NCBI GenBank assembly: GCA_012517355.1
Contig: JAAYVD010000050.1
Location: forward strand, 23,350-87,349
Source: Candidatus Rifleibacteriota bacterium
GTDB lineage: Bacteria > Muiribacteriota > Ozemobacteria > Ozemobacterales > Ozemobacteraceae
Direction of reading: 5' to 3'
Length of the DNA stretch: 64,000 bases
The translations under genes and the position numbers were made by a program. Positions 3,493-25,138 of the stretch are shown in pieces; the stretch's first letter is position 1, and each line of letters starts with the position of its first letter. Below the pieces are notes generated by a model. It did no database searches and had not been told where the DNA came from. It worked only from the letters and a program-made list of their open reading frames with translations.

Positions 3493-4038
3493 ATGGAACC
3501 TGTCAAGGCATTCCCGGGGATCCACCCCCTGGCCCGGCCGATGTACGCCATCGGCGTGTTTTTCCTCGCCGCCGCCGCCTATACGGCCTTTCCCACCGGC
3601 ACCCCCACCGACTGGACCTGGTTCCTGGCCGGCCTGGCCGCCCTGATGGTGATCCTCGCCCTCGGCACCCGACGGACCGTCCTCGTCGATGTTTCGGGGG
3701 TCATCTCCGAGGTCAACCATATCGCCTTCGTCCCCCGCCAGACGATCCTGGCCAGGTTTCCAGAGGTGGGGTCGGTGATCGCCCGGTTCTGGCACCTGCC
3801 CGAGACCGGCGGCCACCGGGTCACCTTCGACCTGCGGGTCAAACTGAGCCACGGGCCGTCCTTCTCGATCCTCCCCCCAAAGGTCCTCGGCACCCTTCCC
3901 CCCGCCACCCACCCGGGACTGGCCAATTACCCGGACGACCTGCGGGAAGAGGCGAAGAACGCCATGGCCGAAGCCCATGCCCTCGCAGAGCGGATCGGCT
4001 GTCCGCTGTCGATCATCGAACCCCCGGACCTCTCCTGA
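3493..4038 (+). CDS. Hypothetical membrane protein, 181 aa.
   Basis: ATG at 3493 is preceded by GGAGAGG. Two predicted TM helices (AIGVFFLAAAAYTAF, WFLAGLAALMVILAL). Codon third positions are GC-rich. No recognisable family. Confidence 0.45.
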   Translation: MEPVKAFPGIHPLARPMYAIGVFFLAAAAYTAFPTGTPTDWTWFLAGLAALMVILALGTRRTVLVDVSGVISEVNHIAFVPRQTILARFPEVGSVIARFWHLPETGGHRVTFDLRVKLSHGPSFSILPPKVLGTLPPATHPGLANYPDDLREEAKNAMAEAHALAERIGCPLSIIEPPDLS

Positions 4039-4206
4039 GCCACCCGAGCTGACTTCCCCTGGATTCCCCACCGGTGACGACCGGTGGGTGACGACCGGTC
4101 GGCCGGTCGCGTCGGGAGGCATCCTTTTCCTCCCGTTGGCGAAAGCCGGAAACACCCGCCTGCAACCAGGGAGAAGGCGGTTGGACGGAGGGACCGGATC
4201 AGCGGA

Positions 4207-4650
4207 TCAGCGGGAGAGGTCGGCGGGGGGACTGGCGAGGTCGCTCTCGTCCTCGGGAATGTCGTCCACGACAGGCTCGTCTTCCGGCTGTCCTTCGGAA
4301 GGATGGTCCGTGTCGGGAGAGTCCGCTTCTTCCGCGACCAAGGGGAGGTGGCAGGCCGGGCAGGTGCCGGGGCCGTCGGCTCCGAACCCGCATTCCGGAC
4401 AGGAGTAGGGATACACCGGCCCTTCCTCGACGAGGGTGTCCTCTTCCGAAGGGGTATCGACCTCTTCCAGCGGGGTCGGCGCGGTTGCCGGAACGGCGCC
4501 GGCCGGCAGGCCAGCCGCTGCCGTGGCGGGGACCAATCCACCATGGGAACCGGCCAGACGGGCGGCCGGACTGGCCAGGGGGGCAGCCCCGGCGATCCCT
4601 CCCAGGAGAGCCAACAGAACACCCGCCACCAGAACCATCACATACCGCAT
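4207..4650 (-). CDS. Hypothetical secreted protein with a CxxC...CxxC zinc-ribbon and an acidic C-terminus, 147 aa.
   Basis: Start ATG at 4650 (MRYVMVLVAGVLLALLGGIAGAAP, signal-peptide-like) preceded by GGAGAAG. Motif YPYSCPECGF...GTCPACHLPL. Asp/Glu/Pro-rich tail. Confidence 0.45.
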   Translation of the reverse strand: MRYVMVLVAGVLLALLGGIAGAAPLASPAARLAGSHGGLVPATAAAGLPAGAVPATAPTPLEEVDTPSEEDTLVEEGPVYPYSCPECGFGADGPGTCPACHLPLVAEEADSPDTDHPSEGQPEDEPVVDDIPEDESDLASPPADLSR

Positions 4651-4750
4651 GCCACGCTTCTCCGACCCGACGAATTCCGAACGAGAATGGCCGCAGCATA
4701 CTGCAATTTCCCCGACCCGGCAACATACCCTCACTCCTCCAAGGATCCGC

Positions 4751-4861
4751 CATGGTTCCGGGAGTGGCGGTCAGCCGCTTCCCGACATGGGCTCCGGGAG
4801 TGGCGGTCAGCCGCTTCCCGACATGGGCTCCGGGAGCTGCGGTCAGCCGCTTCCCGACATG
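4751..4861. repeat. Tandem direct repeat, 36-bp unit x3 (ATGGGCTCCGGGAGTGGCGGTCAGCCGCTTCCCGAC), intergenic.
   Basis: Read directly: units at 4751-4785, 4786-4821 and 4822-4857, with 1-2 mismatches between them. Confidence 0.75.
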
Positions 4862-4898
4862 GCGAATCCCGGGGTCCGCCTCTTCCGAAGGCGCGGGG

Positions 4899-4990
4899 TT
4901 GCTGGAACCCGACCGACACGCTGTCGGAAGTGCCCCCTTGCCGCCACGGATGGCGGCGCGAAACGCCAGGGTCGCGCATCGCAAAGGGGC
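4899..4990 (+). repeat. REP-like dispersed element, copy A (two adjacent stem-loops: GCCGCCAcggaTGGCGGC and GCGCGAAACGC...GCGCATCGC).
   Basis: Near-identical core TTGCCGCCACGGATGGCGGCGCGAAACGC...GCGCATCGCaAAGGGGCC recurs at 16615-16700 (same orientation) and at 61945-62100 (inverted). The ORF-track translations ...PCRHGWRRE...SRIAKGP... recur at all three loci. Confidence 0.7.
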
Positions 4991-5501
4991 CGGACCGCGG
5001 CCCATCCGTCTGACTTCTTTCGCCTGGCTTCCTCCCGGGGCTGTGCCATCAACAGCCCTCACTATGGCTACCGGAGCTGTTCTCCGGCCTGCTTCAGCCT
5101 GACACGTCGATGGGGTCAGGGTCTGAGGAGTCCCGGTTCTCCAGAAAAGCTTCGGCCCGCTGAGTGGGATTTCCTGCTGTGCCTTCCGGCAGGTTGCTTC
5201 CGGTGCCGGGCCCGGCTATACTCCTGACCGGCCGGCACCGGGGCAGGAACCGCCCAACCGGCTCGCCCCCGATGGGCACCGTCATCCTGCCACGTTCCTT
5301 CCGGGAGGTTTTGCAGCCCAGATGACCGCCACCGTGAAACGCGCCACCATCTCCCCGCCGGAGCTCCCCCCGCACACCCCCCGCCACGCCACCCCTCTTC
5401 CCGTCCGGCAGGTGAGCCCCGGCCCCCCGCGGTGAGATGATGACAGAAGTTCCCCTGCGGCCGGGTCCTCGTTTCTTGATCCTCCTGGTTGAGACGGGGC
5501 C

Positions 5502-8258
5502 ATGAGCGACCGGACACCCGGTCTGAACACCGGAAGGCTCCAGGGACCGGACCTTCCGGCCTGGGCGGTCACCGGCCTGTGGGCGGTGCTCGTCCTGGTG
5601 CCCTTCCTGCTGACCGCCTGGCTGGCCGAGGGACTTCAACGCCAGTACCGCGCGTCGGCCGTCAGGCAGACCGGACGCCGGCTGGAACGGGCCGCCCGCC
5701 GACTGTTCCACGAATCGCATCCCCGCTTCCTGGCCGCCCGCCGGCTCGACGCCCCCACCCCGGGTGAGCTGCCCCCGCACCCGGCCCCGCAAGATATCGG
5801 CGAGGTCCTCGCCCTCCTGCGGGACTTGTTACGCACCGGCCGGCTCCCCGACCAGATCTCCCTGCTCCGGCTGAAACACCGCCTGGGCTGGACCTTCGAT
5901 CTCTTTTCGCTGCGCGGGCGGCCGGGCATTGCCACGGAGATCCTCTGGGACGGCCGGCCCGGCTGGCTTGCCTGGAAGCCTGACGGCCCCGGGGGGAACG
6001 TCCGGACGGAGGTCGTCCTGCCCCCGCCCCGCGCCCTGTCCCTGCGCGACCGGTGCCAGGAAGCCGCCGCGCGGGCGGGGGTGGCCTGGGCGGTGACCGA
6101 CCGCGCCAGCCGCCGCTGGTGGCGGAGCCCCACGTTCGCCGACCCGGTCCCCGGACTCCTCCGGGCGATCGGACCACGCGACCGGGGAACCCTGGTCCAC
6201 GGCGGCCGGCTCGTCTGGTTCGACCGGGTCGGCCGGGAAGGCCGCTTCCTGGTCTCCACCCCGCTGCCCGTCCTGGCCCGGCCCGACCTGGCCGGGTGGC
6301 TGCCGCTGGCCGGAGGGGCGGCGCTGTTGCTGGTCTCGCTGGTCTTTCCGACGTTCTGCCGCCGTTTCCTGGCCTGGTCGCTCCGGTGGAAACTGCTCGC
6401 CCTGGCCGCCTACCTGGTGAGCGTCCCGCTGGCTCTCGCCCTGCTCCTCGGCCTGGGCTTCCTGAACGGCCGCCGGGAGACCCTGGAGGGCCAGCGGCTG
6501 ACCGCCTCCCTCAGCGACCTCCAGCTCTTCGATGCCGAGTTCCTCCGGTTCCTGCAAACCGTCGAAGTCCGGCTCCACCGCCTCCACGGGCAGGTGGCCC
6601 GGAGTGCGCCCGACCCCGCCGCCCTGGCCCGGCTGGCCGAGCCCATGTTCCGGGGATTGGTCACCGACCGCCTCCTGCTGCTCGCCTCCGACGGGCAGGT
6701 GCTACTCGACCGATGCTCCGACCACCGCACCGATTCCCTGCTGAACGAAGTGGGAACGGGGTTCCTCCGGCAGGAACTGGAGCGCCAGCGCCCCATCGGC
6801 CCGCCCCCGGAGACCTCCCAGCGGTTCCGGCTGTTCCACGAATCCATCCGCAACTCGACCTGGGGCAGCCATTACCACGTCCAGGGCGTTCTGCAGAAGT
6901 TCCTGTTCGGAACGAGGATCTTCTACACCTTCTGGCGGCTGTTCGCCAGGGGCCATCCCACGCTCGGCATCATGGCCGCCGACCTGTTCCACCAGGACAC
7001 CTCGCGGGCGTTCCTGGCCCGGGGCCGGGGCGTTGCCCGGACGGGCGCCTGCCGGCTGTTCACCTGGCACGGCGAGTCGGGCACCTGGTTCCCCACCCCG
7101 CCCCCCGGACGCCCGGACCTCGAGGCCCTGGTGGAAGCCTCGCGCCGGAGCGGCGAGCCCGAGACCGGCGAGGTGGAAACGCGGGCCGGCAGGACGCTGG
7201 CGTTGGCCGTCCCCGCCCACCATCTCCTCGGCTGCGTGCTGGTGGGGGTTCTGCCGGCCGGCGAGGAGGAGCGGGTCCTGGCCGAGCGGCGCGGGTTGCT
7301 GCTGACGGGAACAGGCCTCACGCTGGCCCTGGCCCTCGCCTGCTGGGTCCTGCTGACGCAGGGGTTGCTCCTCCCCGTGCGTGAGATCCTGGCGGGGATC
7401 GCCCGCCTGCGGCGCCTGGAAACGCACCCCCCCATCCCGGTCCTCGGCGACGACGAACTGGCCCGTCTGGCGAAGGGCATCAACCGGATGATGGACATCA
7501 CCGACGAACTCGACCTGGCCCGGGTGGTCCAGCGTGCCTTCGTGCCCGAGGCCCCGCCCCCCCTGCAACGATGGCGGATCGCGTTCTGGGAGAGCCGCCG
7601 GCTGGGGGTGGAAGGCGCCTTCTTCGACTGGTATCCCTGCCCCGACGGGCAGTGGGCCGTGTTGCTGGGCACCGCCACGGGCAGCGGGGTCCGGTCGGCC
7701 CTGATCATGGCGATGGTGAAGGCGCAGGCCTTCCTCCATTTCCGCGGGAACCGGCCCCCCGAGGGGTTCCTCGACCGGGTGCGCGAGGCCCTTCCCGACC
7801 TGGGCGTCACCCGGGCCTGCATGGCCCTTTCCCTGCTGGTCATCGACGAGGCCGGAGCCCGGCTGGCCTTCGTGGGGGCGGGAAGCCCCTTCGCCCTCGT
7901 CCGGTCGGCCCCGCCGGGCCCGGGCGCCCCCGTGGCCGTCGACTTCGTTGGTTCCCCTTCGCCGCCGCTGGGCGCCAGGGCTGCCGGTTCCTTCCCCGCC
8001 GTCTCCGTGCCCCTGGGGCCGGGCAAGGCCCTGCTCCTGTTCACCACCGGGGTGGCCCACGCCGCCGGCCCCGATGGCCAACCCCTGGGTTTCGAAGCCC
8101 TGCGCGAAGCCTTCGCGGCCGCCGACCCCCGGGCCGCCGACCCGCTGCGGCCCCTGCGGGAAAGGCTTCAGCAGCACGTCCAGGGCGGTGGGCGGGGAAA
8201 GGAGGCCTTCCTCCTGGTCTGGGATCCGGGCCCGCCGGCCGAGGGAGGATCCCGGTGA
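5502..8258 (+). CDS. Membrane sensor with a HAMP domain and a degenerate PP2C/SpoIIE-like domain (predicted pseudo-phosphatase), 918 aa.
   Basis: N-terminal TM (VTGLWAVLVLVPFLLTAWLA), a periplasmic-type region, a second TM block, and a HAMP-like segment (LLPVREILAGIARLRRLETHPPIPVLGDDELARLAKGINRMMDITDEL). The C-terminal SpoIIE-like fold is present, but the metal-binding motifs are replaced: LGTATGSG instead of GDVxGHG, and LFTTGVAHAAG instead of YTDG. Confidence 0.65.
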   Translation: MSDRTPGLNTGRLQGPDLPAWAVTGLWAVLVLVPFLLTAWLAEGLQRQYRASAVRQTGRRLERAARRLFHESHPRFLAARRLDAPTPGELPPHPAPQDIGEVLALLRDLLRTGRLPDQISLLRLKHRLGWTFDLFSLRGRPGIATEILWDGRPGWLAWKPDGPGGNVRTEVVLPPPRALSLRDRCQEAAARAGVAWAVTDRASRRWWRSPTFADPVPGLLRAIGPRDRGTLVHGGRLVWFDRVGREGRFLVSTPLPVLARPDLAGWLPLAGGAALLLVSLVFPTFCRRFLAWSLRWKLLALAAYLVSVPLALALLLGLGFLNGRRETLEGQRLTASLSDLQLFDAEFLRFLQTVEVRLHRLHGQVARSAPDPAALARLAEPMFRGLVTDRLLLLASDGQVLLDRCSDHRTDSLLNEVGTGFLRQELERQRPIGPPPETSQRFRLFHESIRNSTWGSHYHVQGVLQKFLFGTRIFYTFWRLFARGHPTLGIMAADLFHQDTSRAFLARGRGVARTGACRLFTWHGESGTWFPTPPPGRPDLEALVEASRRSGEPETGEVETRAGRTLALAVPAHHLLGCVLVGVLPAGEEERVLAERRGLLLTGTGLTLALALACWVLLTQGLLLPVREILAGIARLRRLETHPPIPVLGDDELARLAKGINRMMDITDELDLARVVQRAFVPEAPPPLQRWRIAFWESRRLGVEGAFFDWYPCPDGQWAVLLGTATGSGVRSALIMAMVKAQAFLHFRGNRPPEGFLDRVREALPDLGVTRACMALSLLVIDEAGARLAFVGAGSPFALVRSAPPGPGAPVAVDFVGSPSPPLGARAAGSFPAVSVPLGPGKALLLFTTGVAHAAGPDGQPLGFEALREAFAAADPRAADPLRPLRERLQQHVQGGGRGKEAFLLVWDPGPPAEGGSR

Positions 8259-11053
8259 TCGGCGACGCCAGGCGGTTCCTGATGTTCCTGCTGATGGTCC
8301 TGGTGCCGGCCGGCTTCGTGGTCGTCGGCATCACCCAGAACCAGGAGGAGCGGCGCGTCCGCCGGGCACGGCGCACCCTGGAGGCGACCAGGGACCGGCT
8401 GCTGCGGGTCGCCTTCCGCGCCAATCCCCTGGTCCAGATGAGCCGTGGGGCCTGGGATCTGGCCTCCCGCCTGCGGGCGGCCGGGTGGCGCCCCGTGGCC
8501 GACTCGCCTCTCGCCAACGGCTTCCCGGCCGGCTACCCGGTCCAGGTCGCGGGGTTCACCCCCGAAGGAACCCTGTGGCAACCCGACTGGGGGAAGGTGA
8601 CCTCCCGCTTCCTCTGGTCCCAGCTGTGGCAGGACATCTGCCGTCGGGAGATCCCCGCCCGCAACCTCGAGCGTTACCAGAGCCTGTTCGGCGGTTGGCT
8701 GACGGGGGACGACACCCGGGTCGAGGCAACCTTCCAGGAAGTGTCAACCCCGGCCGGGCCCGGGTTCTTCTCGTTCTTCCGGGGACCGGGAAAGGCCGGC
8801 GTCATGATGTTCTGCCCCGGTCTGCCCACTCCCCTGGCCCGCTGGCGGGAACTGCTCGTCCGCGAGCCGCCCCGGGGTCTCGATGTCTGGGTGCTCGACC
8901 CCCGGACCGGCCGCCTGGCGGGCACCGCCGCCCTCCCCCCGGCAGAACGGGAACTGCTGCGGCGGGCCCGGTGGGACCCCGCGGTGGAGAGCCTTTCCAG
9001 CCGCCATTGCCACGTCACGCGGCGGACCGAGGACAACCTCATCCTGCTGGGCCGCGCCCGCATCCGGCCCCCGGCCAGGCCGGTCAACCTCTGGCCGGCG
9101 CTGGTGTTGATCGGCCTTCTCGTCCCCGTCTGGTGGATCCTGGTGGGGGGGGATCCCCTGGCCCGGATGGGCATCCAGGCCCGGCTCCTCGTCCAGTTCG
9201 CGCTGGTGGCCGCCCTGCCGGTGGCGCTGGTCTGGCAGAACGGCTGGAACCACCTCGCCGAAACCGAACAGCGGCTGATCGAAGAGGCGCACGAGGGGAA
9301 CCTGGTCGGCCTGCGCGCGGCCGACGCCGCCCTCGGCCGGATGGAGGAACGGCAGGAGCGCTATTTCCGGGCCCTGACCGCGGCGGTCGGCCGGCGCCGG
9401 CGGTCGGCGGCGATTCCCGCCGCGGGGCGGCTCCTGGAGCGGGCCCGCCGCGCCAACCGGATCTCGGCCTACACCCTCATCGACCAGGCGGGGCGGGCCC
9501 GGGCCTCGTGGTGGAGCGACCGCGACATCGGCGACCTGGGGGAGATGTTCGCCGCGGAGATGGTGCGCCGCTACCGGGACGACACCTTCCTCCGGCCGGC
9601 CGACACCCTTGCCTGGACCTTCTTCCAGTTCCTGCAGAGCACCCTGATCGGGTTCGACACCATCAGCGACTCGCGGGGGATCGCGCGGCCCCTCGAGGCG
9701 GGGGCCTCGACGGTCTGGTGGTTCTGGGATCTCTTCCCCCGGGGGACCGCCTCGGACGCGGCTTTTCTCGGACTGGTCAAGAGCACCTGGGACCTGCAGG
9801 AGGAGGCGCTGCACGAGGGTCTCCCGGCCGGGGTGCAGGCCTTCGACCTGGGTTCGGGCCAATGGTTCCCGCGGCCCCCCGCCTTCGCCGCCCCCGATGC
9901 GCTGCTGGCCTCGGCCTTCCTTGGCCGGCACCACGTCCGCGCCCGCCGGACCGCCGGGGGAAGGTCGCTGCTGGTGTCGGCGTTTCCCAGCCCCGTCCAT
10001 CCCCGGGTCTGCTTCGTGACCGCCACCGACCTGGCACCGGTGGCCCGCCGCCTGGACGCCCTCCGCTGGTCCTTCCTGCTGGCGGCCGCCTTCACCCTGG
10101 TGCTGGCGGGGTTTCTGGCCAGGGTCATCTCCGGCACCCTGCTCGTGCCGCTGGGGCGGCTGGCCGAAGGGGTGACCGCCTTCGGACGGGGCCGGCGCGA
10201 CCTGGCCCTGCCCGACCTCGGCCCCGACGAGATCGGGGTCATGGGCGAGGCATTCAACGGGATGGTACGCGAAGCCCGCGAGGTCGATGCCGCGCGCCAG
10301 GTGCAGGAGAGCCTGATTCCCGCCGTTCCCCGCACGGTTCCGGGATACCAGACCGCCCTGCGCTACCTGCCGCTCGAAGACCTGGCAGGGGATTTCTGCG
10401 ACACCCTTCCCCGGCCCGACGGCTCGCTGTTCCTGGCCATCGGCGACGTCACCGGGCACGGCATCGGCTCGGCCCTGCAGACCGCCATGGCCAAGGCGGT
10501 CTGTGCCCAGGCCTGCCGCGAGGGCTGGGCGCTGCCCGCGACGTTCGACGCCCTCAATGCGGTCCTCCATCTGGGCCGGGCGAGCGGCAAGCTCATGACC
10601 TTCTGCGGGGGGATCCTCGATCCGGCCACCCATCTCTGGCAGTGGATCTCCGCCGGCCACAACTTCCCGGTGAGGCGTGGCCCGGCCGGCGAGGCGGACT
10701 TCCTGCGCCACGTGGGGGTGCCGCTGGGGGCGAAGGCGGCCCGCAAGTGGTCGGTGTCGGAGCGCCCCCTGGAACCGGGTACCCTGCTGGTGTTCTACAC
10801 CGATGGCCTCGTCGAGGCCACCGCCCCGGACGGCGAACCGTTCGGCTACGACCGGCTGCTGGAACAGGTCCGGCTCGCCCCGGCCGACCCGGGGGCGGCG
10901 CTGGACCACCTGCTACAGGCGTTCCGCGGGTTCGTGGGGGGGACCCCGCTCAACGACGACGTGACCCTGCTGGCGGTGGCGCGCAATCCCGCCCCTGATC
11001 CCGCCTCCGATCCCGACCCCGATCCCTTCCCCCGATCCCGACCATTCCCTTGA
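8255..11053 (+). CDS. Membrane sensor with a HAMP domain and an intact PP2C-type (SpoIIE/RsbU-like) serine phosphatase domain, about 930 aa.
   Basis: GTG at 8255 is 6 nt after GGGAGG and overlaps the stop of the upstream paralogue (alternative ATG at 8282). TM segments, HAMP (LLVPLGRLAEGVTAFGRGRRDLALPDLGPDEIGVMGEAFNGMVREAREVDAARQVQESLIP) and canonical PP2C motifs (LAIGDVTGHGIGSA and VFYTDGLVEA...NDDVTLLAV). The long upstream ORF extension 7571-8254 overlaps the previous gene and was rejected. Confidence 0.7.
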   Translation: MIGDARRFLMFLLMVLVPAGFVVVGITQNQEERRVRRARRTLEATRDRLLRVAFRANPLVQMSRGAWDLASRLRAAGWRPVADSPLANGFPAGYPVQVAGFTPEGTLWQPDWGKVTSRFLWSQLWQDICRREIPARNLERYQSLFGGWLTGDDTRVEATFQEVSTPAGPGFFSFFRGPGKAGVMMFCPGLPTPLARWRELLVREPPRGLDVWVLDPRTGRLAGTAALPPAERELLRRARWDPAVESLSSRHCHVTRRTEDNLILLGRARIRPPARPVNLWPALVLIGLLVPVWWILVGGDPLARMGIQARLLVQFALVAALPVALVWQNGWNHLAETEQRLIEEAHEGNLVGLRAADAALGRMEERQERYFRALTAAVGRRRRSAAIPAAGRLLERARRANRISAYTLIDQAGRARASWWSDRDIGDLGEMFAAEMVRRYRDDTFLRPADTLAWTFFQFLQSTLIGFDTISDSRGIARPLEAGASTVWWFWDLFPRGTASDAAFLGLVKSTWDLQEEALHEGLPAGVQAFDLGSGQWFPRPPAFAAPDALLASAFLGRHHVRARRTAGGRSLLVSAFPSPVHPRVCFVTATDLAPVARRLDALRWSFLLAAAFTLVLAGFLARVISGTLLVPLGRLAEGVTAFGRGRRDLALPDLGPDEIGVMGEAFNGMVREAREVDAARQVQESLIPAVPRTVPGYQTALRYLPLEDLAGDFCDTLPRPDGSLFLAIGDVTGHGIGSALQTAMAKAVCAQACREGWALPATFDALNAVLHLGRASGKLMTFCGGILDPATHLWQWISAGHNFPVRRGPAGEADFLRHVGVPLGAKAARKWSVSERPLEPGTLLVFYTDGLVEATAPDGEPFGYDRLLEQVRLAPADPGAALDHLLQAFRGFVGGTPLNDDVTLLAVARNPAPDPASDPDPDPFPRSRPFP

Positions 11054-11104: not shown

Positions 11105-12541
11105 ATGACATCGCAACCAGCCCCGGCCGCCACGGCGGCGAGCCCCCGCACCTACTACTCCACCACGTCCATCTGCCCCCATTGCGGGACCCTCCTGCCC
11201 GGCAAGGTGGTCGGCCTGGACGACGGGGTCTTCGTGGTCCGCGACTGCCCGACCCACGGCCATCTCGAAGGGCTCGCCTGCTCCGATCGGGCCTGGTTCG
11301 ACCGGCTGCCCGCCTTCGACGTGGCCCCTTCCCCGCCCACCGGGCCGCGCCGACCCGTGGCCCACGGTTGTCCCGCCGACTGCGGCCTGTGCGCCGCCCA
11401 CCGCCAGCGGGCCGGCACTGCGGCCGTCGAGATTTCCAACGAGTGCGACCAGGCCTGCCCCACCTGCCTGGCCGACAACCGCAGCACCTTCCGCCTGACC
11501 CCTGCCGAGGTGGCGAAGATCGCCGACGACCTGTTGGCCAGCCAGGGCGCGGTCGACGCCTTCACGCTGTCGGGCGGCGAACCCACGATCCATCCGCAAC
11601 TGTTCGAGATCCTCGAGGTGCTCGACCGTCCGGCGATCGCGCGCATCGTGATCAACAGCAACGGTCGCCGCATCGCCACCGACGACGCCTTCCTCGACCG
11701 GTTGGCCCGACACCCCAAGGTCTACGTCTCCCTGCACTACGACGGCCCGGCCGCCCCGCGCCTGCGCGGCGTCGAGTTCGCCCGCCAGCAACTGGCCCTC
11801 GACCGCCTGATCCGCTGGAATATCAAGATGGTCCCCCTCCTCCTGGCCGCCCGCGACGTCAACGAGGCCGACCTCGGCCCGGTGACCCTCGACCTGCTCA
11901 CCCGCAGCCCGGCCGTCAAGTCGGTGATGTTGTCGATGATGGCCTACTGCGGCAGTCGCGGCTCACAGGTGCCCATCGACCCGCGGCGCCGCCTGACCAT
12001 TCCCGACGCCCTGGCGGCGATGGAAAGCGGCACCGGCGGGGTGCTGCGCCGGGCCGACTTCATCCCGCTGCCGATGCCCAACCCCCTCTGCGCCGCGATC
12101 GGCTACTTCCTCGTCCAGGACCGCGAGGTCGTCGGCCTGCTGCCCCTGGCCGACCAGGACCGGGTGATCGAGCACGTCGCCAACGCCCACTTCGTCGACC
12201 CCGGCCCGGAACTGGAAGCCCTGCTGCGGCTGGGAATCGACACCGTCTATGCGGATCCCGGCCGGTTCCGCGATCCCGAGCGCGTCCGCTCCAGCTTCAA
12301 GGCGCTCCTGGCGGAACTGTTCCCCGCCGGCCGCCGCCTGGAGGCGGCCGAACGCCGGGTGATCGCGGAAAACCGCATCAAGACCGTCTACCTGATGCAG
12401 TTCATGGACGCCTGGACCTTCGATTCGGTGCGGATGAGCAAGTGCAGCTGCCAGCACTTCCTGCCCGACGGCAAGGTGGTGCCGAGCTGCGGCTACTACA
12501 CGTTCCACCGGGGAAAGGACCCGCGGTTCGCCGACCGGTAG
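11105..12541 (+). CDS. Radical SAM protein (MJ0619/Tes-like architecture) with an N-terminal Cys4 zinc-ribbon/rubredoxin-like motif and a C-terminal Cys cluster, 478 aa.
   Basis: N-terminal CPHCG...(17 aa)...CPTHGH. Radical SAM core ISNECDQACPTC (CxxxCxxC) with TLSGGEPT. C-terminal KCSCQHF...PSCGYY. No SPASM domain. Confidence 0.75.
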   Translation: MTSQPAPAATAASPRTYYSTTSICPHCGTLLPGKVVGLDDGVFVVRDCPTHGHLEGLACSDRAWFDRLPAFDVAPSPPTGPRRPVAHGCPADCGLCAAHRQRAGTAAVEISNECDQACPTCLADNRSTFRLTPAEVAKIADDLLASQGAVDAFTLSGGEPTIHPQLFEILEVLDRPAIARIVINSNGRRIATDDAFLDRLARHPKVYVSLHYDGPAAPRLRGVEFARQQLALDRLIRWNIKMVPLLLAARDVNEADLGPVTLDLLTRSPAVKSVMLSMMAYCGSRGSQVPIDPRRRLTIPDALAAMESGTGGVLRRADFIPLPMPNPLCAAIGYFLVQDREVVGLLPLADQDRVIEHVANAHFVDPGPELEALLRLGIDTVYADPGRFRDPERVRSSFKALLAELFPAGRRLEAAERRVIAENRIKTVYLMQFMDAWTFDSVRMSKCSCQHFLPDGKVVPSCGYYTFHRGKDPRFADR

Positions 12542-12616
12542 CGCCGCCCTTCGGGGTGCCGGGGGGCGCTGCCGACATCCGGTCTCCGATCGGAAGTCGC
12601 CCCCCCGAAACCGTGA

Positions 12617-15988: not shown

Positions 15989-16582
15989 ATGGCCTGGTTG
16001 AAACGTCTCTACGACTGGATGCTCACCTGGGCCGACCGCCCGGGCGGTCCGGTCGCGCTGTTCGTCCTGGCCTTCGCCGAGTCCAGTTTTTTCCCCATCC
16101 CCCCCGACGTTCTCCTGATCGCCCTCTGTATCTCGGCTTCCTCCCGGGCCTTCTGGTTCGCCACCATCTGCTCCGCCGGTTCCCTCATCGGCGGCATGGC
16201 CGGTTACGCGATCGGCATGTTCCTGTGGGCGGCCGTCAGTGACATTTTTTTCACCTACGTACCAGGGTTTACGCACGAAGTATTCCAGCGGGTGTGCGAC
16301 CAGTATGAGCTCTATTCGTACTGGATCGTCTTCACCGCGGCATTCACCCCCATCCCGTACAAGGTCATCACCATCAGTGCCGGGGTGACCCGCATCTCGT
16401 TCGGCCCCTTCGTGGTGGCCAGCCTGGTCGGCCGTGCCGCCCGCTTCTTCCTGGTGGCGGGCCTGCTCTGGAAATGGGGCCGGCCGATGAAGGAGTTCAT
16501 CGAGAAGTATTTCGAGATGTTGACACTCGCCCTCACCCTTCTCGGCATCCTGGGGTTCGTGGCCCTGAAATACCTGTTCTGA
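15989..16582 (+). CDS. DedA/YqaA-family (VTT/SNARE-associated domain) inner-membrane protein, 197 aa.
   Basis: FVLAFAESSFFPIPPDVLLIAL...GSLIGGMAGYAIG...FTPIPYKVITISAGVTRISFGPFVVASLVGRAARFFLVAGLL matches the YqaA/DedA pattern. Confidence 0.7.
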   Translation: MAWLKRLYDWMLTWADRPGGPVALFVLAFAESSFFPIPPDVLLIALCISASSRAFWFATICSAGSLIGGMAGYAIGMFLWAAVSDIFFTYVPGFTHEVFQRVCDQYELYSYWIVFTAAFTPIPYKVITISAGVTRISFGPFVVASLVGRAARFFLVAGLLWKWGRPMKEFIEKYFEMLTLALTLLGILGFVALKYLF

Positions 16583-16614
16583 CCCGCCGCCAGCCGGTTG
16601 CCGGCATCGCCGGG

Positions 16615-16700
16615 AAACCGACCGGAACGATGTCGGAAGGGCCCCCCTGCCGCCACGGCTGGCGGCGCGAAGCGCGCATTTCGCGCATCGCGACGGGGCC
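16615..16700 (+). repeat. REP-like dispersed element, copy B.
   Basis: CTGCCGCCACGGCTGGCGGCGCGAAGCGCGCATTTCGCGCATCGCGACGGGGCC. Both hairpins are conserved relative to copies A and C. It lies in the intergenic gap between convergent genes. Confidence 0.7.
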
Positions 16701-16717
16701 CACCTCCCGGCTTCCGC

Positions 16718-19700
16718 TCAGCCCGTGGCCGGTTTCCCTGCCCCCGCTCCCGGGGTCCCTGGGCCGTCCGGGCGACGATCCCAGTTGGTGATGGTGACAT
16801 CCTGTTGCGGGAAAGGAATCTGGATGCCGTTCTCCCCGAGCACTCGGCAGATGCGCTGGTTCATCTCGTGCTGGAAGTCGGGAAACCCGTCCATTCCTGA
16901 GATGTAGACCCTGACCTCGATGTTCAGCGAGGAGTTCCCGAACCCGGTCAGGACCACCTGCGGGGCCGGGTCGGTCAGGACTTTCGGATGGGTGCGGGCG
17001 ACGAGCATCAGGTGATGCCTGACCTTCTCGAGATCGGATCCGTAGGCCACCCCGACCGGAAAGACGATGCGCAGGATGGGGTCGGAAAGCGTCCAGTTCA
17101 TCAGGCGACCCGTGATCAGCTCCTTGTTCGGGATGACGACCTCCTTGCGGTCGGCGTTCATCAACGTGGTGGCGCGGATCTGGATGCGGGTCACCGCCCC
17201 GGTGGTGTCGCCGACGGTGACGATGTCCCCGACCCGCAGGGGTCGCTCGAACAACAGGATCAGGCCGGAGATGAAGTTGGCGAAGATCTCCTGCAGGCCG
17301 AACCCGAGGCCGACGCTGACGCCGGCGGCCAGCCACTGGATCTTGTCCCACCCGAGCCCCACCGTCTCCATCACCACCACGAACCCGATCAGGCCGATGA
17401 CATAACTCGACAGGGTGCGCACCGCGAACTTGACCCCCGCCTCCAGGTCGAGCCGCTGCAGGACGGCGAACTCGATGAACCCGGGCAGGTTGTTGGTGGC
17501 GCTGATGGTGAGGGCGATCAGACCTATCGCCACCAGCAGGTCGAACAGGGTGATGTCGACCGTCCGTTGCACCCACTCCCGCCGGACCCCGCCGTCCGGG
17601 CCGGTCACCGCCTCCAGGATCTGGGCGTCGGTGGTCCACAGCTTGACCTGGTCGAGGATGCGCAAGGCGGGGAAGACCTCGGCCCAGATCTGGAAGACGC
17701 CGATCAACATGGCGACCGCGAGCACCGCGAACAGCAGCTTCTCGGTCTGGGCGCTGATCTGGAAGATGGACGGCTCGGCGTGGGCGGCTCCCCCCGGGCC
17801 CGCCCCTGTGGCGGCCGGAGCGACCTCGGAACGGCCTTCCTCGCCCTCGGTCGGAGACGGCACCTGGACCACCGCCTTCATCGCCTGCGACTTGTGCAGG
17901 GCGAGGCTGCGGCGATGGACGTGCAGGGCGCGCCAGAAGACGGCATAGGCCAGGTTGCAGCCCAGGATCAAGACCAGCGACTGGACCGCCTTTCCCCACA
18001 GACGGTTCGCCGTGTAGACGTAGCCCATCAGGCAGGCAGGTATCATGACGACCGGCAGCACCACCGCCAGGAAGAACAGCAGATACCGCAACCGGTAGAT
18101 GAACCGCTCCCGCGATACCTGGCCCACGGCCTGCATGACCGGCCCGGCGGGACGGGTAACCGGGTCGAGCAGCCACGCCCCGGCCAGCAGCATCGCCACC
18201 AGGAGACCCCGCCCAAGGCTGACCTGGACGAGATCGGGGGCCTGCTGTTCGACCACCTGGAACAGGAAGAGCAGGGGAAGGACGACCGCCCCGAGCAGGC
18301 GGGCCTGCCGCTGCAGCAGGGGATGGACCTCGGTCACGTGCCAATGGCAATGGTGGGCGGCCAGACCATCCGGCCGGAAGACCTGGCGGAAGGTCTCCAG
18401 GCCCCAGAGCGGGAGGGCGAGCGCCGCCAGCTGGACGGCCACCGTCTCGCTGAACCCGCCCGGTCCTGGATACAGGCTGATGCCCAGGCTGAAGATCCAC
18501 ATCAACAGCGGCCAGGGCGCCGCCCAGCAGACGGTCAGCACGATCGCCTCCAGGGTCAGCCGGAACCGGTCGGTCGCGGCCCGCTGCACCAGCGCGCCGA
18601 TTTCGGCCAACCGGGCGTTGAGCCGCAGACGGCTGGCCAGGATCGCCGTCCAGAACGCCAGCAGGGCGATCATCAGGAGGGGACGGCGACGGAAGGCACG
18701 ACCCAGCGCCCACGCCACCTCCGCCCAGCGGGAGGGCGAAACCAGCCAGGAGACCCCCCGGATCGCGCGCCCGAGGTCGGCCACCCCCAGGGGCTGGCAA
18801 CTCCGCACCCAGAACACCCGCTCGTCGATGAAGGCGGCAAACTCCCGGCTCTTTTGCGAAGCCTGTCGGGACAAGGTGTCGAGATCCACCAGCCGGGTCA
18901 GCCGCGCGGACAGATCGCGCTGGGCGTTCTCCAGGATCTCCCGACGCTGGCGCAGCAGGGTCTTGACCTTGGCCTCCAGCGCGCTCCGCTGGCTTCCCGT
19001 CAGCGCCCCGGCCGAACCCGCCGCCCCGGCCACCAGGTCACGGGCCCGGGCATCCAGGTCACGATCCTGGGCGAGGGCTTCCTCGATCTCGATCAGGCGG
19101 AGCTGGGTCAGCGAGATCTCTTCCGCCCGCCGGGCCTGCCCCTCCTGGAAGGACCCCGAGGAGGGAAGTTCGGCCCGCTTGACCCGCAGCAGGAGCCCGA
19201 TCGCGTCGGAGAACCCGATGGCCTGGATCTTGTCCCGCAACGACCGGTGGTCGTCCCGCAGCCGCGCCAGCAGGTGCGTCAGGCTGGCCACCTCCCGGCT
19301 CGATCCCTCCATCCGCAGGGCCACCTCGTGCCGCTCGGCCGCCCAGGCGGCGTTCTCCTGGGCCAGATTGGCCAGGACCGGGGTGTCGATCCCGAGATCC
19401 CGCGCGGTCTCCTGGGCCTGGACCACGGCGGCGGCGGCCTCCCGTCTCCGGCGGTCGTCCACCAGGCGACGGAAGGTCTGGGCCTGGATCTCGGCCGCCT
19501 CCTTGCGGATCGTCAGCAGCTCCCGCCGCAATCGGGACAGCTCCAGGGTGGTGCCGAACTGGTCGAGTTCGAGCTGGTACAGCCGGGTTTCTTCCTGGGC
19601 CTGCCCGTTCTGCGCCTGGAGCAGGCCCAGCCCGGCGTCGTCCCCGGCTTCGGCCGGGACGAGGGCGGCGATCTTCTCGGTCAGGGCCTCGCCGCGCTGG

Positions 19701-20251
19701 CGGGCCGCCGCCAGTCGGGCGGGAAGGTCCTTCCGCCGGGCCTGGAGGCGCTCGGCCTCGGCCAACTCGGCCGCCAGCTGGTCGGCCAGTCCCTTCCCGT
19801 CGGCTTCGGCCCGGTCGAGAGTCTGCTCGAGGACAGTCAGGGGGGTTCCCGACCCGATCAGCGGGGTCACGCCGGACACCCCGGCGGCCACCAGGGCCTT
19901 CAGGCGGGCGATCTCGGCGGGCGCCGCCCGGACCTGGTCGGTGAGGGCCCGGAACCGGGCATGCGCATCGGTCATCGCCTGCAAGGCCGTCAGGGTCTGC
20001 GTGAGCGTCTCCTTCAGCGCCTGGTGCGTCTCCGAGGCGGTCCCCCCTCCTTCCAGGTCCTTGAGCCACTTCTCGACGGATTCGCGGGTGGGGACCCCGG
20101 TTCCCGCCGCGAACACGCTCCCGGGGCCCCATCCGGCTGGGAACAGGAGGACGAGGAGGCCCACCAGCACGGCAAGGACGACAGCGCCGGGAGCGCGGGG
20201 AGCGTGACTCCAGCGGCTGGAATGACGGCAGGCGGGGCGACGGGACATGGC
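16718..20251 (-). CDS. MscK/KefA-like large mechanosensitive channel (MscS family) with a long periplasmic coiled-coil N-terminal domain, about 1177 aa.
   Basis: Signal/TM at the N-terminus, then about 500 aa of coiled coil, then about 11 TM helices. C-terminal MscS signature GLILLFERPLRVGDIVTVGDTTGAVTRIQIRATTLMNADRKEVVIPNKELITGRLMNWT. Start taken at the internal Met (MSRRPACRHSS...); the exact start is uncertain. Confidence 0.8.
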   Translation of the reverse strand, partial: AMSRRPACRHSSRWSHAPRAPGAVVLAVLVGLLVLLFPAGWGPGSVFAAGTGVPTRESVEKWLKDLEGGGTASETHQALKETLTQTLTALQAMTDAHARFRALTDQVRAAPAEIARLKALVAAGVSGVTPLIGSGTPLTVLEQTLDRAEADGKGLADQLAAELAEAERLQARRKDLPARLAAARQRGEALTEKIAALVPAEAGDDAGLGLLQAQNGQAQEETRLYQLELDQFGTTLELSRLRRELLTIRKEAAEIQAQTFRRLVDDRRRREAAAAVVQAQETARDLGIDTPVLANLAQENAAWAAERHEVALRMEGSSREVASLTHLLARLRDDHRSLRDKIQAIGFSDAIGLLLRVKRAELPSSGSFQEGQARRAEEISLTQLRLIEIEEALAQDRDLDARARDLVAGAAGSAGALTGSQRSALEAKVKTLLRQRREILENAQRDLSARLTRLVDLDTLSRQASQKSREFAAFIDERVFWVRSCQPLGVADLGRAIRGVSWLVSPSRWAEVAWALGRAFRRRPLLMIALLAFWTAILASRLRLNARLAEIGALVQRAATDRFRLTLEAIVLTVCWAAPWPLLMWIFSLGISLYPGPGGFSETVAVQLAALALPLWGLETFRQVFRPDGLAAHHCHWHVTEVHPLLQRQARLLGAVVLPLLFLFQVVEQQAPDLVQVSLGRGLLVAMLLAGAWLLDPVTRPAGPVMQAVGQVSRERFIYRLRYLLFFLAVVLPVVMIPACLMGYVYTANRLWGKAVQSLVLILGCNLAYAVFWRALHVHRRSLALHKSQAMKAVVQVPSPTEGEEGRSEVAPAATGAGPGGAAHAEPSIFQISAQTEKLLFAVLAVAMLIGVFQIWAEVFPALRILDQVKLWTTDAQILEAVTGPDGGVRREWVQRTVDITLFDLLVAIGLIALTISATNNLPGFIEFAVLQRLDLEAGVKFAVRTLSSYVIGLIGFVVVMETVGLGWDKIQWLAAGVSVGLGFGLQEIFANFISGLILLFERPLRVGDIVTVGDTTGAVTRIQIRATTLMNADRKEVVIPNKELITGRLMNWTLSDPILRIVFPVGVAYGSDLEKVRHHLMLVARTHPKVLTDPAPQVVLTGFGNSSLNIEVRVYISGMDGFPDFQHEMNQRICRVLGENGIQIPFPQQDVTITNWDRRPDGPGTPGAGAGKPATG

Positions 20252-20306
20252 GGTCTCCTGGACAGACGTGTTCACCGGCCGCCGGCATGGCCGGGGGGGG
20301 GCCGGT

Positions 20307-21032
20307 TCACCACTCGAAATAGAACTTCTCCCCCGGCAAGCCCATCTGTTGGTGTGGGGAGATCGGCTTCTCGCGCGGGCTGTAGGTGGTGGGGCGGATC
20401 TGGTCGGGCAGCACCGTCCGTTCGAGCTGGATGCCTTCGAACCAGACGGCATGCGAAGCGGTGTCGGGCGAGGTGTTCTCGAGCACGAGGCTGGTGCGGC
20501 TGGCCAGGCTGGGGGAATGGGTGTATTCGAAGGTCACGTAGAGCCGGTGCCAGGGCTGTGGACCCTGCCCCGGAGCCTCGAGGGTAGCCCGTTCGCGCAC
20601 CCCGGCATACACGGGCGTCCCGTACCGGGTGGCCACGCCCTGCGCATCGACCTCCACCCCGTCGTAGCCGACCTCGTCCCCATCGTCGTCGGTCCGCAAA
20701 AACCCGATGGCGGCCGCACCGCTGCCGGGGCAAACCCAGCCCGACAGGATGTAGCGGTTCTGCCCGGGAGGCGGGGCGAACACCCCGGTGGCGATCTCCT
20801 GCCACAGGGTGCCCGCGGGCAGGACGGGATGGGCCGGGGGAACCCCCGGCTTCGGCGGCTTGGGAGGCTTGGGCGGTTTGGGAGGCTTGGGCTTGCGCGC
20901 CGCCAGAACCGGCGGTGCCGATGGCAGCAGGCCGCTGCCCGGCCACCCGGCCGGCCACCCCAGGACCATGCCCAGAAGCAGGATTCCCAGGACACGGACC
21001 GCACCGGAGGTGGGGGTGGTCACGGGTTGCAT
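20307..21032 (-). CDS. Small secreted protein: signal peptide, (K-P-P)n linker and a ~150-aa C-terminal domain shared with the 3553-aa giant protein. Ends ...FYFEW.
   Basis: Signal-like MQPVTTPTSGAVRVLGILLLGMVLGW. Linker KPKPPKPPKPPKPPKPG encoded by a 9-bp tandem DNA repeat. C-terminal block NRYILSGWVCPGSGAAAIGF...SLVLENTSPDTASHAVWFEGIQLE...RPTTYSP...FYFEW aligns with the last 150 aa of CDS 41923..52584. It is 55 nt upstream of the MscK gene and co-oriented with it. Confidence 0.5.
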   Translation of the reverse strand: MQPVTTPTSGAVRVLGILLLGMVLGWPAGWPGSGLLPSAPPVLAARKPKPPKPPKPPKPPKPGVPPAHPVLPAGTLWQEIATGVFAPPPGQNRYILSGWVCPGSGAAAIGFLRTDDDGDEVGYDGVEVDAQGVATRYGTPVYAGVRERATLEAPGQGPQPWHRLYVTFEYTHSPSLASRTSLVLENTSPDTASHAVWFEGIQLERTVLPDQIRPTTYSPREKPISPHQQMGLPGEKFYFEW

Positions 21033-21115
21033 GCGCAGTCTCCTCACGGGGATTTCCGCCATTGTGCCAGAAGCGGGGCCCACCGTCCAGTGGCCGGGGC
21101 CGGGGCCGGCCCCGT

Positions 21116-24100: not shown

Positions 24101-25138
24101 AGGAGCGGGGTTCCCTGCCCCGAGGTCATCACCGGGACCGGCCACGACAGGCCGCCCTGCCCACCCCCCGGCCGCCCAGCGGGCCAGCCAGCGTAGTTCC
24201 CAGCGGCGCAGCATCCGGTCGAGCCCGGCGTGGGTGGTCCCGTGGAAAGGCCGGGGACCAGCCCCCACAGCCGCCTGCAGCCACGCGGCCGCCCGCTCCC
24301 GCAGACGGGGGCCGGGCTCGGGAACCGGCGGCAGGGCGGCCGCCCCCCGCCCGGCCTCGGCGTCGGCCAGTTGCCGGCGGATCCAGGCGGCCACGCCCAG
24401 GGTGGGCAGGTAGTCCTCCCCGGCTTCGGTCAGGAAGGCCAGCGGGATGTAGCGAACCACCCCGTCCAGATCGAGGAAGAGATTGGTCAGGCCGAAGTCC
24501 GGGGCAGCCGCTGCCACCGGGCCGTACAAGGCCAGAGGCGGCGGGGGCCGTTCCCGGAAGGTCCCGCCCAGGGACAGCTGCTCGACCCCGCCGATCGCCT
24601 GCCGCCGCAGGAACTTGCGGCCGAGCAGCGGCCCGGGGAACGCCCGCAATGCCGCCACGAATGGCCGGTCGGTCTCCTCCTGTTGGGCCTCGTCGAACAG
24701 GAAGTCGAAGGCCGCCACCCGCACCCCGGCCGAGGCGAGGATCCCGAGGGCCTGGGCAAAATCGGCCCGGTGCGGAGGCCGGCCGAACACCTGGGGAAAG
24801 GTATCGTCCTTGGCCACGACCACCACGGGGTGGTCGGGAGGCGACCGCAGGGGAAGCACGAAGAACAGGTCGAACACCTTCCCGTCCAGCCAGGCGAGAA
24901 GGTGCCGGGGCAGAGGGACGAGCGCGACCAGGCACACCAGGACCGGCACCAACAGCAGCCAGCTCCCGGAGACGCCGGGGCCGGTCCCCGACAGGGCGTC
25001 GGGGGGCGAACCGGCCGGGGGGGGAACCGGGGCGCCGCCACCGCTTTCCCGCGCCACCCCCCCGCGGCCCGTCACGGCCGTCGCCGGGGGAGCAGCGCCC
25101 GCCGTGCCTGCCCCAGGTGGCTCACCGTGACCGTTCAC
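21116..25138 (-). CDS. CHASE2-domain membrane sensor fused to a class III adenylate/guanylate cyclase, with a long periplasmic middle region containing carboxypeptidase-regulatory-like beta-sandwich repeats, about 1340 aa.
   Basis: CHASE2-like N-terminus (LLLVPVLVCLVALV...HPVVVVAKDDTF...VAAFDFLFDE). Middle region with GVFRLGGLPPGSYSVELTWIDDD-type repeats. C-terminal cyclase TLTVMFTDLAGFTTISE...LDKYIGDAVMCFWN...GINTAECMVGFYGS...GDGVNLASRLEG. The exact start is uncertain. Confidence 0.75.
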   Translation of the reverse strand: MNGHGEPPGAGTAGAAPPATAVTGRGGVARESGGGAPVPPPAGSPPDALSGTGPGVSGSWLLLVPVLVCLVALVPLPRHLLAWLDGKVFDLFFVLPLRSPPDHPVVVVAKDDTFPQVFGRPPHRADFAQALGILASAGVRVAAFDFLFDEAQQEETDRPFVAALRAFPGPLLGRKFLRRQAIGGVEQLSLGGTFRERPPPPLALYGPVAAAAPDFGLTNLFLDLDGVVRYIPLAFLTEAGEDYLPTLGVAAWIRRQLADAEAGRGAAALPPVPEPGPRLRERAAAWLQAAVGAGPRPFHGTTHAGLDRMLRRWELRWLARWAAGGWAGRPVVAGPGDDLGAGNPAPAQAEPAHGAGGAGAGSGSALPAVRGQGGDPPVGLDRGGTVASEPGRSATGPADREGLDEAPSRADPTETGATGRTAVIWEEVADQMPLTGLAPVTWLDLPPGGLPWMGSPLAPCLRVPFSRQSWPLKGDGIRVVSLALLLGTLSQGGQNALTVAPGLAASEPVDLAFDLADPGSGTIAGRALDQAGKPLAGVEAWAWQTGGGFWASATTGPDGVFRLGGLPPGSYSVELTWIDDDPVASRSQTLATTVGVAAGEPAVTLAPGRFLAGSVTLVASVPAALVPQILVVTGDPVWIERLGLSGQPLGPPASTGGLLVRDRLPEGGPSEPGSKPAVAADAPAAGVPAAGVPAAGESAMGVPAGFEVNALDDGPALSLDDRGRVRAADGRPAAGRTVAFTETGTPWSARFLVTVRVAPGKDGVTVSGLPSSLGARVTLGRPEPASAPATADPAGPSAAAPVEPDLWTGETVRLTGPLSPTPADLDPVPVAFRLPAGFPVAGRVVFRSSAGRAIDGGPSPADARRWAVAGGEGGAAFPPGTWRVFCDAAGQRGTGNRLAGRFAGRTVFFGSHLGEDQDFQVTPVNFLDRDFKKMAGVNLHAHLCSALLRREFLRPTVLHPDASPVAWPVWNLLALLPFLFLLDRRIARRGAMTGGAWTLLLTTAWTSVSLALFLAGWLLPVALPVLVLGSFGVGRGFHAYTESRRRERQVRSSFGRFVSAKMVEEIVANPSAVRPGGAKTTLTVMFTDLAGFTTISEMLSPEQLGALMNEYLGEMTNLVFAFDGTLDKYIGDAVMCFWNHPAPQKDHAVRAARCAIAMQKRLAELRRGWKARGLPDVTMRAGINTAECMVGFYGSSAQMNFTCLGDGVNLASRLEGANKAYDTLMMVSESTNELLAGSGLRTRFLDFLAVKGKKKPIRVFHLIGEQGEDDALWERVLPLYSDGISGYLTRNWDAAEAALQQVLALLPDDGPSRTYLERIASFRVEPPPADWDGSYHLKTK

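Follow-up and report, generated by a model that had tools for sequence, protein, structure and literature searches.

The 64,000-nucleotide (nt) stretch analysed here, hereafter the window (Candidatus Rifleibacteriota bacterium, contig JAAYVD010000050.1, positions 23,350 to 87,349), carries several copies of a short structured repeat. The repeat is a new and previously undescribed family among the known small structured interspersed repeats. Its unit of 81 nt, or 27 codons (CCGACCGACACGATGTCGGAAGTGCCCCTTTGCCGCCACGGATGGCGGCGCGAAACGCCnGTTTCGCGCAcCGCAAAGGGG), is found between genes and also in frame within them, and we consider it, at a probability of roughly 0.6, to be a selfish or tolerated, non-autonomous and lineage-specific interspersed repeat family that resembles the palindromic elements of Rickettsia (Rickettsia palindromic elements, RPEs).

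Copies within the window were compared by repeat search, pattern counts and a covariance model built from the alignment of copies and run with its filters off (Table 1). The sequence-only reading of this DNA had placed three related copies in the window, and all three are recovered at corrected coordinates (copies A, B and C1). The repeat search pairs 4904-4991 (A) with 16613-16700 (B) at 83% identity, and 62012-62101 (C) matches in inverted orientation with 87% identity to A and 79% to B, with an additional partial inverted match at 61929-61977. A 23-nt core, GCCGCCANNNNTGGCGGCGCGAA, has three exact occurrences in the window compared to 0.13 expected from shuffled sequences, and the pattern of the second hairpin is found four times with at most one mismatch compared to 0.02 expected. 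At copy C the extra half-unit that had been reported is present, but it is a whole degenerate tandem unit (C2), in which the 3′ half (P3 and the 3′ arm of P1) is kept and the 5′ half has diverged, with another hairpin, GCCACC/GGTGGC, instead of P2. A further copy, D, is decayed: its 5′ half (35160-35207) is clear and its 3′ half eroded, with 87% identity over 45 nt to copies of another genome (blastn) and an nhmmer E value of 9e-6. Counting a doubtful relic near 12.5 kb, the window holds three full and two to three decayed copies.

Aligning 15-19 copies, pooled from all sources described below, gives the consensus CCCGACCGACACGATGTCGGAAGTGCCCCTTTGCCGCCACGGATGGCGGCGCGAAACGCCnGTTTCGCGCAcCGCAAAGGGGCCGnCC. 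Single-sequence folds, RNAalifold and the DNA fold of the consensus agree on a 6-bp 5′ hairpin, CCGACA/TGTCGG, followed by a three-way junction in which a third stem, GCCCCTTTGC/GCAAAGGGGC, closes around the two hairpins that had been noticed at the outset. The 5′ hairpin and the closing stem are thus additions to the original pair. That pair had been described as two adjacent perfect hairpins; both exist, but as first written they cannot both form fully because they share the dinucleotide GC, and they form instead as a 5-bp and a 9-bp arm of the junction. In copy A the 5′ hairpin and the junction are present, with the second hairpin (P3) imperfect at 6 bp. The suggested folding check came out positive, for RNA as for DNA: the consensus folds as DNA with z = -7.1 relative to shuffled sequences. 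Its complement folds equally well (z = -5.9), so that the folding energy is uninformative on which strand matters.

Strong pairing does not by itself indicate selection for structure, as the sequence-only reading had proposed. On the stated structure 87% of the aligned cells are paired, compared to 36-42% when the partners are slid, but there is no covariation above that of shuffled columns (219/500 shuffles) and no asymmetry between G-U and A-C departures (14 and 18, respectively). The related claim that loops vary between copies and stems are conserved is weakly true: the CGGA loop is conserved as well as the stems, and most changes in the stems disrupt pairing, with no sign of compensation. 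The consensus folds better than single copies. Strong pairing combined with the lack of covariation leads us to regard the structure as a property of the ancestral or master sequence, from which individual copies depart by decay. Selection for pairing is accordingly not demonstrated.

The ends of the unit are well defined. Copies set in sharply at (C)CCGACCG, and their final AAAGGGG is followed by CCNNCC in about 16 of 19 cases. This trailing motif resembles the first six bases of the unit; in arrays it is the start of the next unit, and no other positions of the alignment vary as much as its two middle ones. The two ends (5′ CCCGACCG, 3′ GGGGCCNNCC) are direct and not inverted, there are no terminal inverted repeats (TIRs), and no locus-specific direct repeats that would represent target-site duplications (TSDs) are found in the flanks of 17 copies. 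Units in arrays run head-to-tail, and where they adjoin the tandem period is exactly 81 nt, both in a two-unit array of another genome (L051; loci outside the window are given by L numbers) and at locus C in a second assembly of this DNA. The consensus is free of stops in all six reading frames. The same holds for 2% of composition-matched shuffles and for 14% of random 81-mers of the 69%-GC window, so this openness is only mildly unusual.

The family is dispersed well beyond the window, as the initial reading had foreseen. The counterpart of the window in the European Nucleotide Archive (ENA) is a metagenome contig of 239,675 bp (ERZ928041 k127_82725), whose flanks, L075 and L077, we reached via window proteins. 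Outside the window this contig carries one unit at L075 978-1065, antisense and immediately upstream of a small membrane-protein gene, and about 2.5 degenerate units within a UvrA-like gene (L077 19287-19489), some 6 kb ahead of the window. The covariance model also detects about 10 units over 21 kb of a second contig from this assembly (L079), the majority of them within called genes. In a pattern scan of one genome per species, the metagenome-assembled genome (MAG) CAZKPI01 ('binchicken_co135_42') has at least 12 units on 9 contigs; among the matches listed, true relatives are found only in this MAG, and 54 of the 63 listed loci are chance matches. One near-consensus unit lies on an 863-nt contig (L080) from another sample. 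With copies elsewhere on the contig, on a second contig, in another MAG and in another sample, the repeat is not a product of local duplication.

Other searches delimit this distribution. When six-frame translations of the consensus were compared with 5.8 billion proteins, two proteins matched, that of L080 and a YdjC protein encoded on L079; such a protein search cannot serve as a census. Core patterns gave chance matches or none, and no true copy, in two scans of Joint Genome Institute (JGI) metagenomes and one scan of viral contigs. No unit is present in 22 kb of Candidatus Ozemobacter sibiricus nor in 14.7 kb of a third genome. By best hits rather than a phylogeny, the host is probably a member of the Riflebacteria: the UvrA of the window contig is closest to a riflebacterial one, and the antiporter of the MAG discussed below shares 91% identity with a protein from 'Candidatus Riflebacteria bacterium' and 78% with its Ca. 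Ozemobacter sibiricus counterpart. Rfam returns no match at gathering thresholds over the whole window, and only chance-level matches at E values up to 10 around C and A; ARAGORN makes no tRNA-like call. Hammerhead and other small ribozymes, attC sites, CRISPR arrays and templates of diversity-generating retroelements were ruled out by anatomy and by the lack of Rfam matches.

What is most interesting about the family is that its units enter conserved genes in frame, as in RPEs, but in a lineage that is high in GC and presumably free-living. The UvrA-like gene of the window contig (product called at 2100 aa) has an in-frame insert of about 70 residues made of the ~2.5 degenerate units; it is absent from six homologues, the closest of which is riflebacterial and about 60-61% identical. 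For the YdjC protein of L079, homologues in the PDB align to residues 11-92 and 131-285 and leave an insert of about 30 residues exactly at the unit, PTDTTSEVPLGRHGGRRETPVSRTARG. On the same contig an ATP-grasp ligase gene reads in frame through two sense units and one antisense unit, a SenB-like glycosyltransferase gene holds one antisense unit in frame, and a DUF434 gene has three units, again in frame, in its C-terminal tail; for these three genes PDB alignments are only loosely informative. The initial statement that all copies lie at gene ends or in intergenic DNA is correct within the window but does not extend to the family, given the copies in uvrA and ydjC. What lets copies persist within genes is a unit length divisible by three and the lack of stops in all six frames.

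These gene-borne copies might also be read the other way round, as a spreading protein-coding module, a 27-residue peptide repeat of which the intergenic copies are by-products. The 27-codon period, the six open frames and the several proteins that carry the unit fit such a module, which we nevertheless consider very improbable: intragenic copies are sense at three loci and antisense at three, at least four reading frames are used on both strands in different genes, which argues against a conserved peptide function, most copies are intergenic, 14% of random 81-mers of the window are equally stop-free, and the encoded peptides have no constant sequence.

Evidence for insertion comes from a MAG copy (L060) located 16 nt upstream of an NhaC-type antiporter gene. 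Ca. Ozemobacter sibiricus and two other relatives lack the element at the orthologous site and have a conserved ribosome-binding region there; the antiporter orthologue is 78% identical in Ca. Ozemobacter sibiricus and 76% in another genome. These empty sites already contain, in ...ccCCATCCgtGGAGGGTacc ATG, the CCATCC that abuts the 3′ end of the MAG element, which suggests that the trailing CCNNCC is derived from the target.

Among known systems the RPEs behave most like the present family. In both, short, structure-forming, multi-copy repeats occupy non-coding DNA and lie in frame within protein-coding genes, which they leave intact. RPEs are not known to have a transposase, and the ~100 kb covered here did not reveal one for this element either. 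Rickettsia felis, for example, has 728 RPEs, 85 of them inside open reading frames (ORFs) (PMC1166351). The two differ in their hosts, AT-rich obligate intracellular bacteria in one case and a presumably free-living, large-genome, probably riflebacterial lineage in the other. The present unit is also shorter (81 nt), forms exact head-to-tail arrays and combines a hairpin with a three-way junction. Common descent with the RPEs appears implausible from the composition of the element (~70% GC) and its host lineage. The definitions of three other known classes, weighed below, fail for this element and its behaviour matches that of RPEs, which is why we file it as RPE-like.

We propose that copies would spread by insertion into many sites, both intergenic and in frame within genes, that local amplification would then produce head-to-tail arrays with an exact 81-nt period, and that single copies would subsequently decay. 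Most copies would probably be neutral or tolerated rather than working parts of neighbouring genes, and intergenic copies would be passively co-transcribed, adding very stable structure to the mRNA. Under the more tentative mechanism described next, insertion would take place beside a CCNNCC target (GGNNGG on the other strand). Because the unit itself begins or ends with a CCNNCC-type motif, a resident unit could be a preferred target, which may account for tandems without spacers.

It is possible as to this mechanism, at odds clearly below even, that it is mobilised in trans as single-stranded DNA by a hairpin-recognising transposase of the HUH/Y1 type, of the kind of IS200/IS605 or the REP-associated tyrosine transposases (RAYTs). 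The model would be the palindrome-associated transposable elements (PATEs) derived from IS200/IS605, which follow the 'peel and paste' route of single-stranded DNA transposition, have subterminal hairpins and neither TIRs nor TSDs, and are flanked, as is familiar from IS608, by a motif like that of the opposite end. The hairpins, the lack of TIRs and TSDs and the CCNNCC that follows most copies and pre-exists in an empty site, a single orthologous comparison, would be consistent with this kinship, in which the target motif rests on a flank consensus and that one site. The element differs from a PATE in that no TnpA was found in the ~100 kb covered and in that its orientation follows no single replication strand within 78 kb.

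Several observations weigh against the view of the family as an RPE-like mobile repeat. First, no transposase domain is found in the 30 ORFs from the window that were compared with Pfam, nor in the Pfam listings for the flanks and the second contig, about 100 kb of a multi-megabase genome. Second, copies are about 81-83% identical whether they are drawn from the window genome, from the MAG or from one of each, with no genome-specific clades; with equal divergence within and between genomes recent bursts cannot be shown, and recent activity is not demonstrated apart from a difference in tandem copy number. That difference concerns locus C, where the window has two units and the ENA assembly three (L075 7985-8153), one extra 81-nt unit; past the repeat, the assemblies agree at 99.96% identity across 12.9 kb of alignment. 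The difference represents either a population copy-number polymorphism or an assembly collapse, which would make it an artefact. Third, the empty site is a single locus, its orthologues reach no more than 77-79% identity, and the automatic alignment leaves the position of the gap ambiguous. Fourth, along 78 kb of the contig copies are oriented -, +, +, -, -, +, and the GC skew is negative across most of the window without a switch; copies therefore do not keep to a single replication strand, which misfits the strict lagging-strand bias of IS200/IS605-type insertion. Skew is a weak test here, being strongly shaped by giant genes. Finally, intergenic copies tend to be in sense orientation and close to stop codons, which could mean selection for a role at the RNA level and not neutrality.

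This last point is the starting point of the main rival explanation. It holds that the repeat is a functional cis-acting RNA element, kept by selection, that would block 3′-5′ exonucleases or attenuate or terminate transcription once co-transcribed at gene 3′ ends or within operons; such roles are found for repetitive extragenic palindromic (REP) sequences and bacterial interspersed mosaic elements (BIMEs) in E. coli, and for conserved terminator motifs lacking a U-tract in high-GC bacteria. Between co-directional genes 6 of 7 intergenic copies are sense, and eight intergenic copies (B, D, the 12.5-kb relic, L001, L002, L008, L021 and L039) begin 0-60 nt after a sense stop codon. The predicted RNA structure of the copies is very stable (-43 to -51 kcal/mol), and element orientation tracks the local gene and not a fixed strand. 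Nonetheless, a retained RNA function would not lead one to expect the absence of covariation and of G-U/A-C asymmetry described above. At A, B and C neither a U-tract terminator nor a sigma-70-like promoter is predicted, and copies are also located in divergent promoter regions (locus C and L051), antisense to a neighbouring gene (L075 978-1065) and inside coding sequences in both directions. The orientation sample is small (binomial p ~0.06 for 6/7), and the sense bias is suggestive but not established. Overall, we consider a selected RNA function improbable, if the most serious of the competing accounts.

A bolder version of the mobile-repeat reading appears similarly improbable to us. It would make the family currently active mobile DNA of a type new to free-living bacteria: a stop-free, 27-codon three-way-junction cassette, moved as single-stranded DNA by a putative structure-specific enzyme to CCNNCC sites, which would routinely add 27-residue loops to housekeeping proteins (UvrA, YdjC, the ATP-grasp ligase and the glycosyltransferase) and would equip 3′ and 5′ untranslated regions with stable RNA structures. 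The difference at locus C would then be a real polymorphism within a population. If true, such an element would contribute significantly to variation in the proteins and regulation of Riflebacteria.

Membership of the REP/BIME class, as first suggested, agrees with part of the evidence. Like REPs, BIMEs and REPINs, the element is abundant, lineage-specific, palindromic, mostly intergenic, without TIRs or TSDs, often located just downstream of genes and foldable as single-stranded DNA or RNA (PMC3337134, PMC3116915). A true REP- or REPIN-type element would be kept and moved by a single-copy RAYT elsewhere in the genome, and the apparent confinement of the family (among the matches listed) to the window organism, one MAG and a small contig of another sample, with none in ~37 kb of related genomes, fits the vertical, lineage-specific pattern of REPINs and RAYTs (PMC3337134, PMC3116915). 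REPINs are defined by inverted REP doublets with a cognate RAYT (PMC3337134). The 81-nt unit with its three different stems is not an inverted doublet that forms one long hairpin, its arrays are direct and not alternating, units lie in frame inside genes such as uvrA and ydjC, and no RAYT is found among the genes scanned (~100 kb). We therefore do not retain the REP/BIME assignment, and rate a REPIN-RAYT origin as a good deal less probable than a selected RNA function.

The other initial suggestion, a small miniature inverted-repeat transposable element (MITE), that is, an internally deleted derivative of an insertion sequence with a DDE transposase, has in its favour a compatible size (~85 nt), high copy number and strong secondary structure; we regard it as highly implausible, since the ends are direct (CCGACC ... 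CCNNCC) and not inverted, the flanks of 17 copies show no duplications and no insertion sequence with matching ends was seen.

Mycobacterial interspersed repetitive units (MIRUs) offer a further comparison. They share with the element units of tens of bases, tandem intergenic arrays of variable copy number, high-GC genomes and a mostly common orientation with flanking genes. MIRUs insert at start codons and have an internal ORF that overlaps the downstream gene by 4 nt (PMC12548453). An internal ATG occurs in only about half of the copies of the present family, and neither an internal ORF nor a stop is conserved. Its strongly palindromic units lie at varying distances from neighbouring starts and stops, from 16 to more than 500 nt in the case of the starts.

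The RPE-like reading bears on several questions. The in-frame invasion of conserved genes by palindromic units, familiar as the RPE phenomenon in reduced, AT-rich intracellular genomes, thereby reaches the large, ~69%-GC genome of a presumably free-living bacterium and is not a peculiarity of Rickettsia. A family from a barely studied, uncultured lineage now has a consensus, boundaries, a structure and a covariance model, and the exact 81-nt period with the CCNNCC junction makes a concrete, testable insertion hypothesis. Tandem arrays could serve as strain markers akin to variable-number tandem repeats. Such repeats also break assemblies, mislead gene callers and inflate the number of 'hypothetical' ORFs; in the DNA studied here, units are crossed by several of the called starts and small ORFs.

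Table 1. Repeat copies and related regions (window coordinates unless an L number is given; bits are covariance-model scores).
Feature	Location	Strand	Support or content
Copy A, full unit	4908-4995	+	100.4 bits; repeat search; fold
Copy B, full unit	16617-16704	+	84.5 bits; repeat search; fold
Copy C1, full unit	62014-62101	-	99.3 bits
Copy C2, degenerate tandem unit	61929-62016	-	27.6 bits (match 61939-62009); repeat search; pattern with 1 mismatch
Copy D, decayed	35114-35207	-	30.7 bits (match 35114-35202); blastn; nhmmer
Doubtful relic, heavily decayed, candidate only	12513-12594	-	17.3 bits, E 0.2; nhmmer E 0.04-0.87
Gene-borne units on second contig	L079 10001-13277 and 18513-19601		YdjC, ATP-grasp ligase, SenB-like glycosyltransferase and DUF434 genes
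Regions sharing a C-terminal domain	20307-20828 and 50587-52584; L002 518-2560		no Pfam match

The neighbours of the window copies were identified by judging which genes are real from codon-position GC and Pfam. Copy A is located in a gene-poor stretch of 1.46 kb between a gene at 3493-4038(+) and a HAMP-SpoIIE gene at 5502-8258(+). This stretch (4039-5501) has no convincing gene; the source assembly calls two small ORFs in it, with atypical codon-position GC. The 36-bp tandem repeat noted next to copy A is real (4757-4862) and has 2.9 copies, not quite the three first counted; it is unrelated to the element and unique to this locus. Copy B lies between the stops of two convergent genes, beginning 35 nt past that of a DedA/VTT gene (15989-16582(+)) and ending 14 nt from that of an MscK-like gene (16718-20452(-)). 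Copy D starts about 30 nt downstream of the stop of the gene 35236-36201(-), in the convergent gap shared with a giant gene encoding Big_5 domains. The 12.5-kb relic lies in the convergent gap between a radical-SAM gene (stop at 12541) and a cyclase gene (stop at 12617), in sense orientation downstream of the minus-strand gene. A covariance-model match at 20736-20825 falls in a coding region and was treated as false.

Units C1 and C2 occupy a divergent gap, head-to-tail to each other. C1 is antisense to a HAMP-SpoIIE sensor gene (944 aa) and, as had been noted, overlaps the start of that gene, by 12 nt: the GTG called as start by the source assembly, at 62090, lies inside the antisense 5′ hairpin. 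Paralogue N-termini make this GTG plausible, and the antisense AAAGGGG of C1 is located 13 nt upstream of it. This arrangement is found at two loci, here (62070-62092) and at L075 1030-1055, where an antisense unit directly precedes a membrane-protein gene and AAAGGGG stands about 13 nt upstream of a GTG in the hairpin arm CGTGTCGGTCGG; at one of the two the gene caller takes that GTG as the start. The element may donate a ribosome-binding site and start codon there, or the arrangement may be a coincidence.

The window also holds features of other kinds. At least four paralogous HAMP-SpoIIE sensor genes (RsbU-type phosphatase, ~920-950 aa) form two adjacent pairs (5502-11053; 62090 to the window end; L075 2326-7996). 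Seven tandem 348-nt repeats at 30840-33262, within the 1829-aa gene 29474-34963(+), encode Big_5 Ig-like domains, with a GC skew to -0.27. After this giant gene, 34984-35030 forms a terminator-like GC hairpin followed by CCCTTTGCCGC, which is similar to the GCCCCTTTGCCGCC segment of the element; it may be another eroded relic, one that the covariance model did not detect. On L079, the YdjC, ATP-grasp and glycosyltransferase genes stand beside TusA, a cysteine-desulfurase-type aminotransferase and a SelD-like gene, a neighbourhood reminiscent of a selenium-sugar type cluster.

A conserved C-terminal domain (...LENT...W F[DE]G[VI]xLE...Y[FY]EW, then the stop) is shared by a 3579-aa giant protein, a 301-aa protein (20307-21212(-)) and a MAG protein (Table 1). 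The MAG locus L002 was considered as an orthologous empty site for the window around 20.4 kb and was rejected, the similarity being that of this paralogous protein domain.

Other repeats lie elsewhere in the window. A 13/26-nt tandem repeat (GCTCACCGCGACC-like, ~13.6 copies) occupies 25120-25295 at the junction of a CHASE2-cyclase gene and a FecR-domain gene. The gene-poor gap at 36283-38109 (1.8 kb) contains, at 37817-37911, a 30-nt direct repeat of comparatively high AT content next to an inverted repeat with 85-87% complementarity (ATTCCGGGGACATGATACCGAA...). Finally, the 722-aa protein encoded at 38110-40278(-), which has no Pfam match, ends in a Cys/His-rich repeat (38110-38240) encoded by eight copies of the 12-nt repeat GCAGGCGCTGTG, and this tail may be metal-binding.

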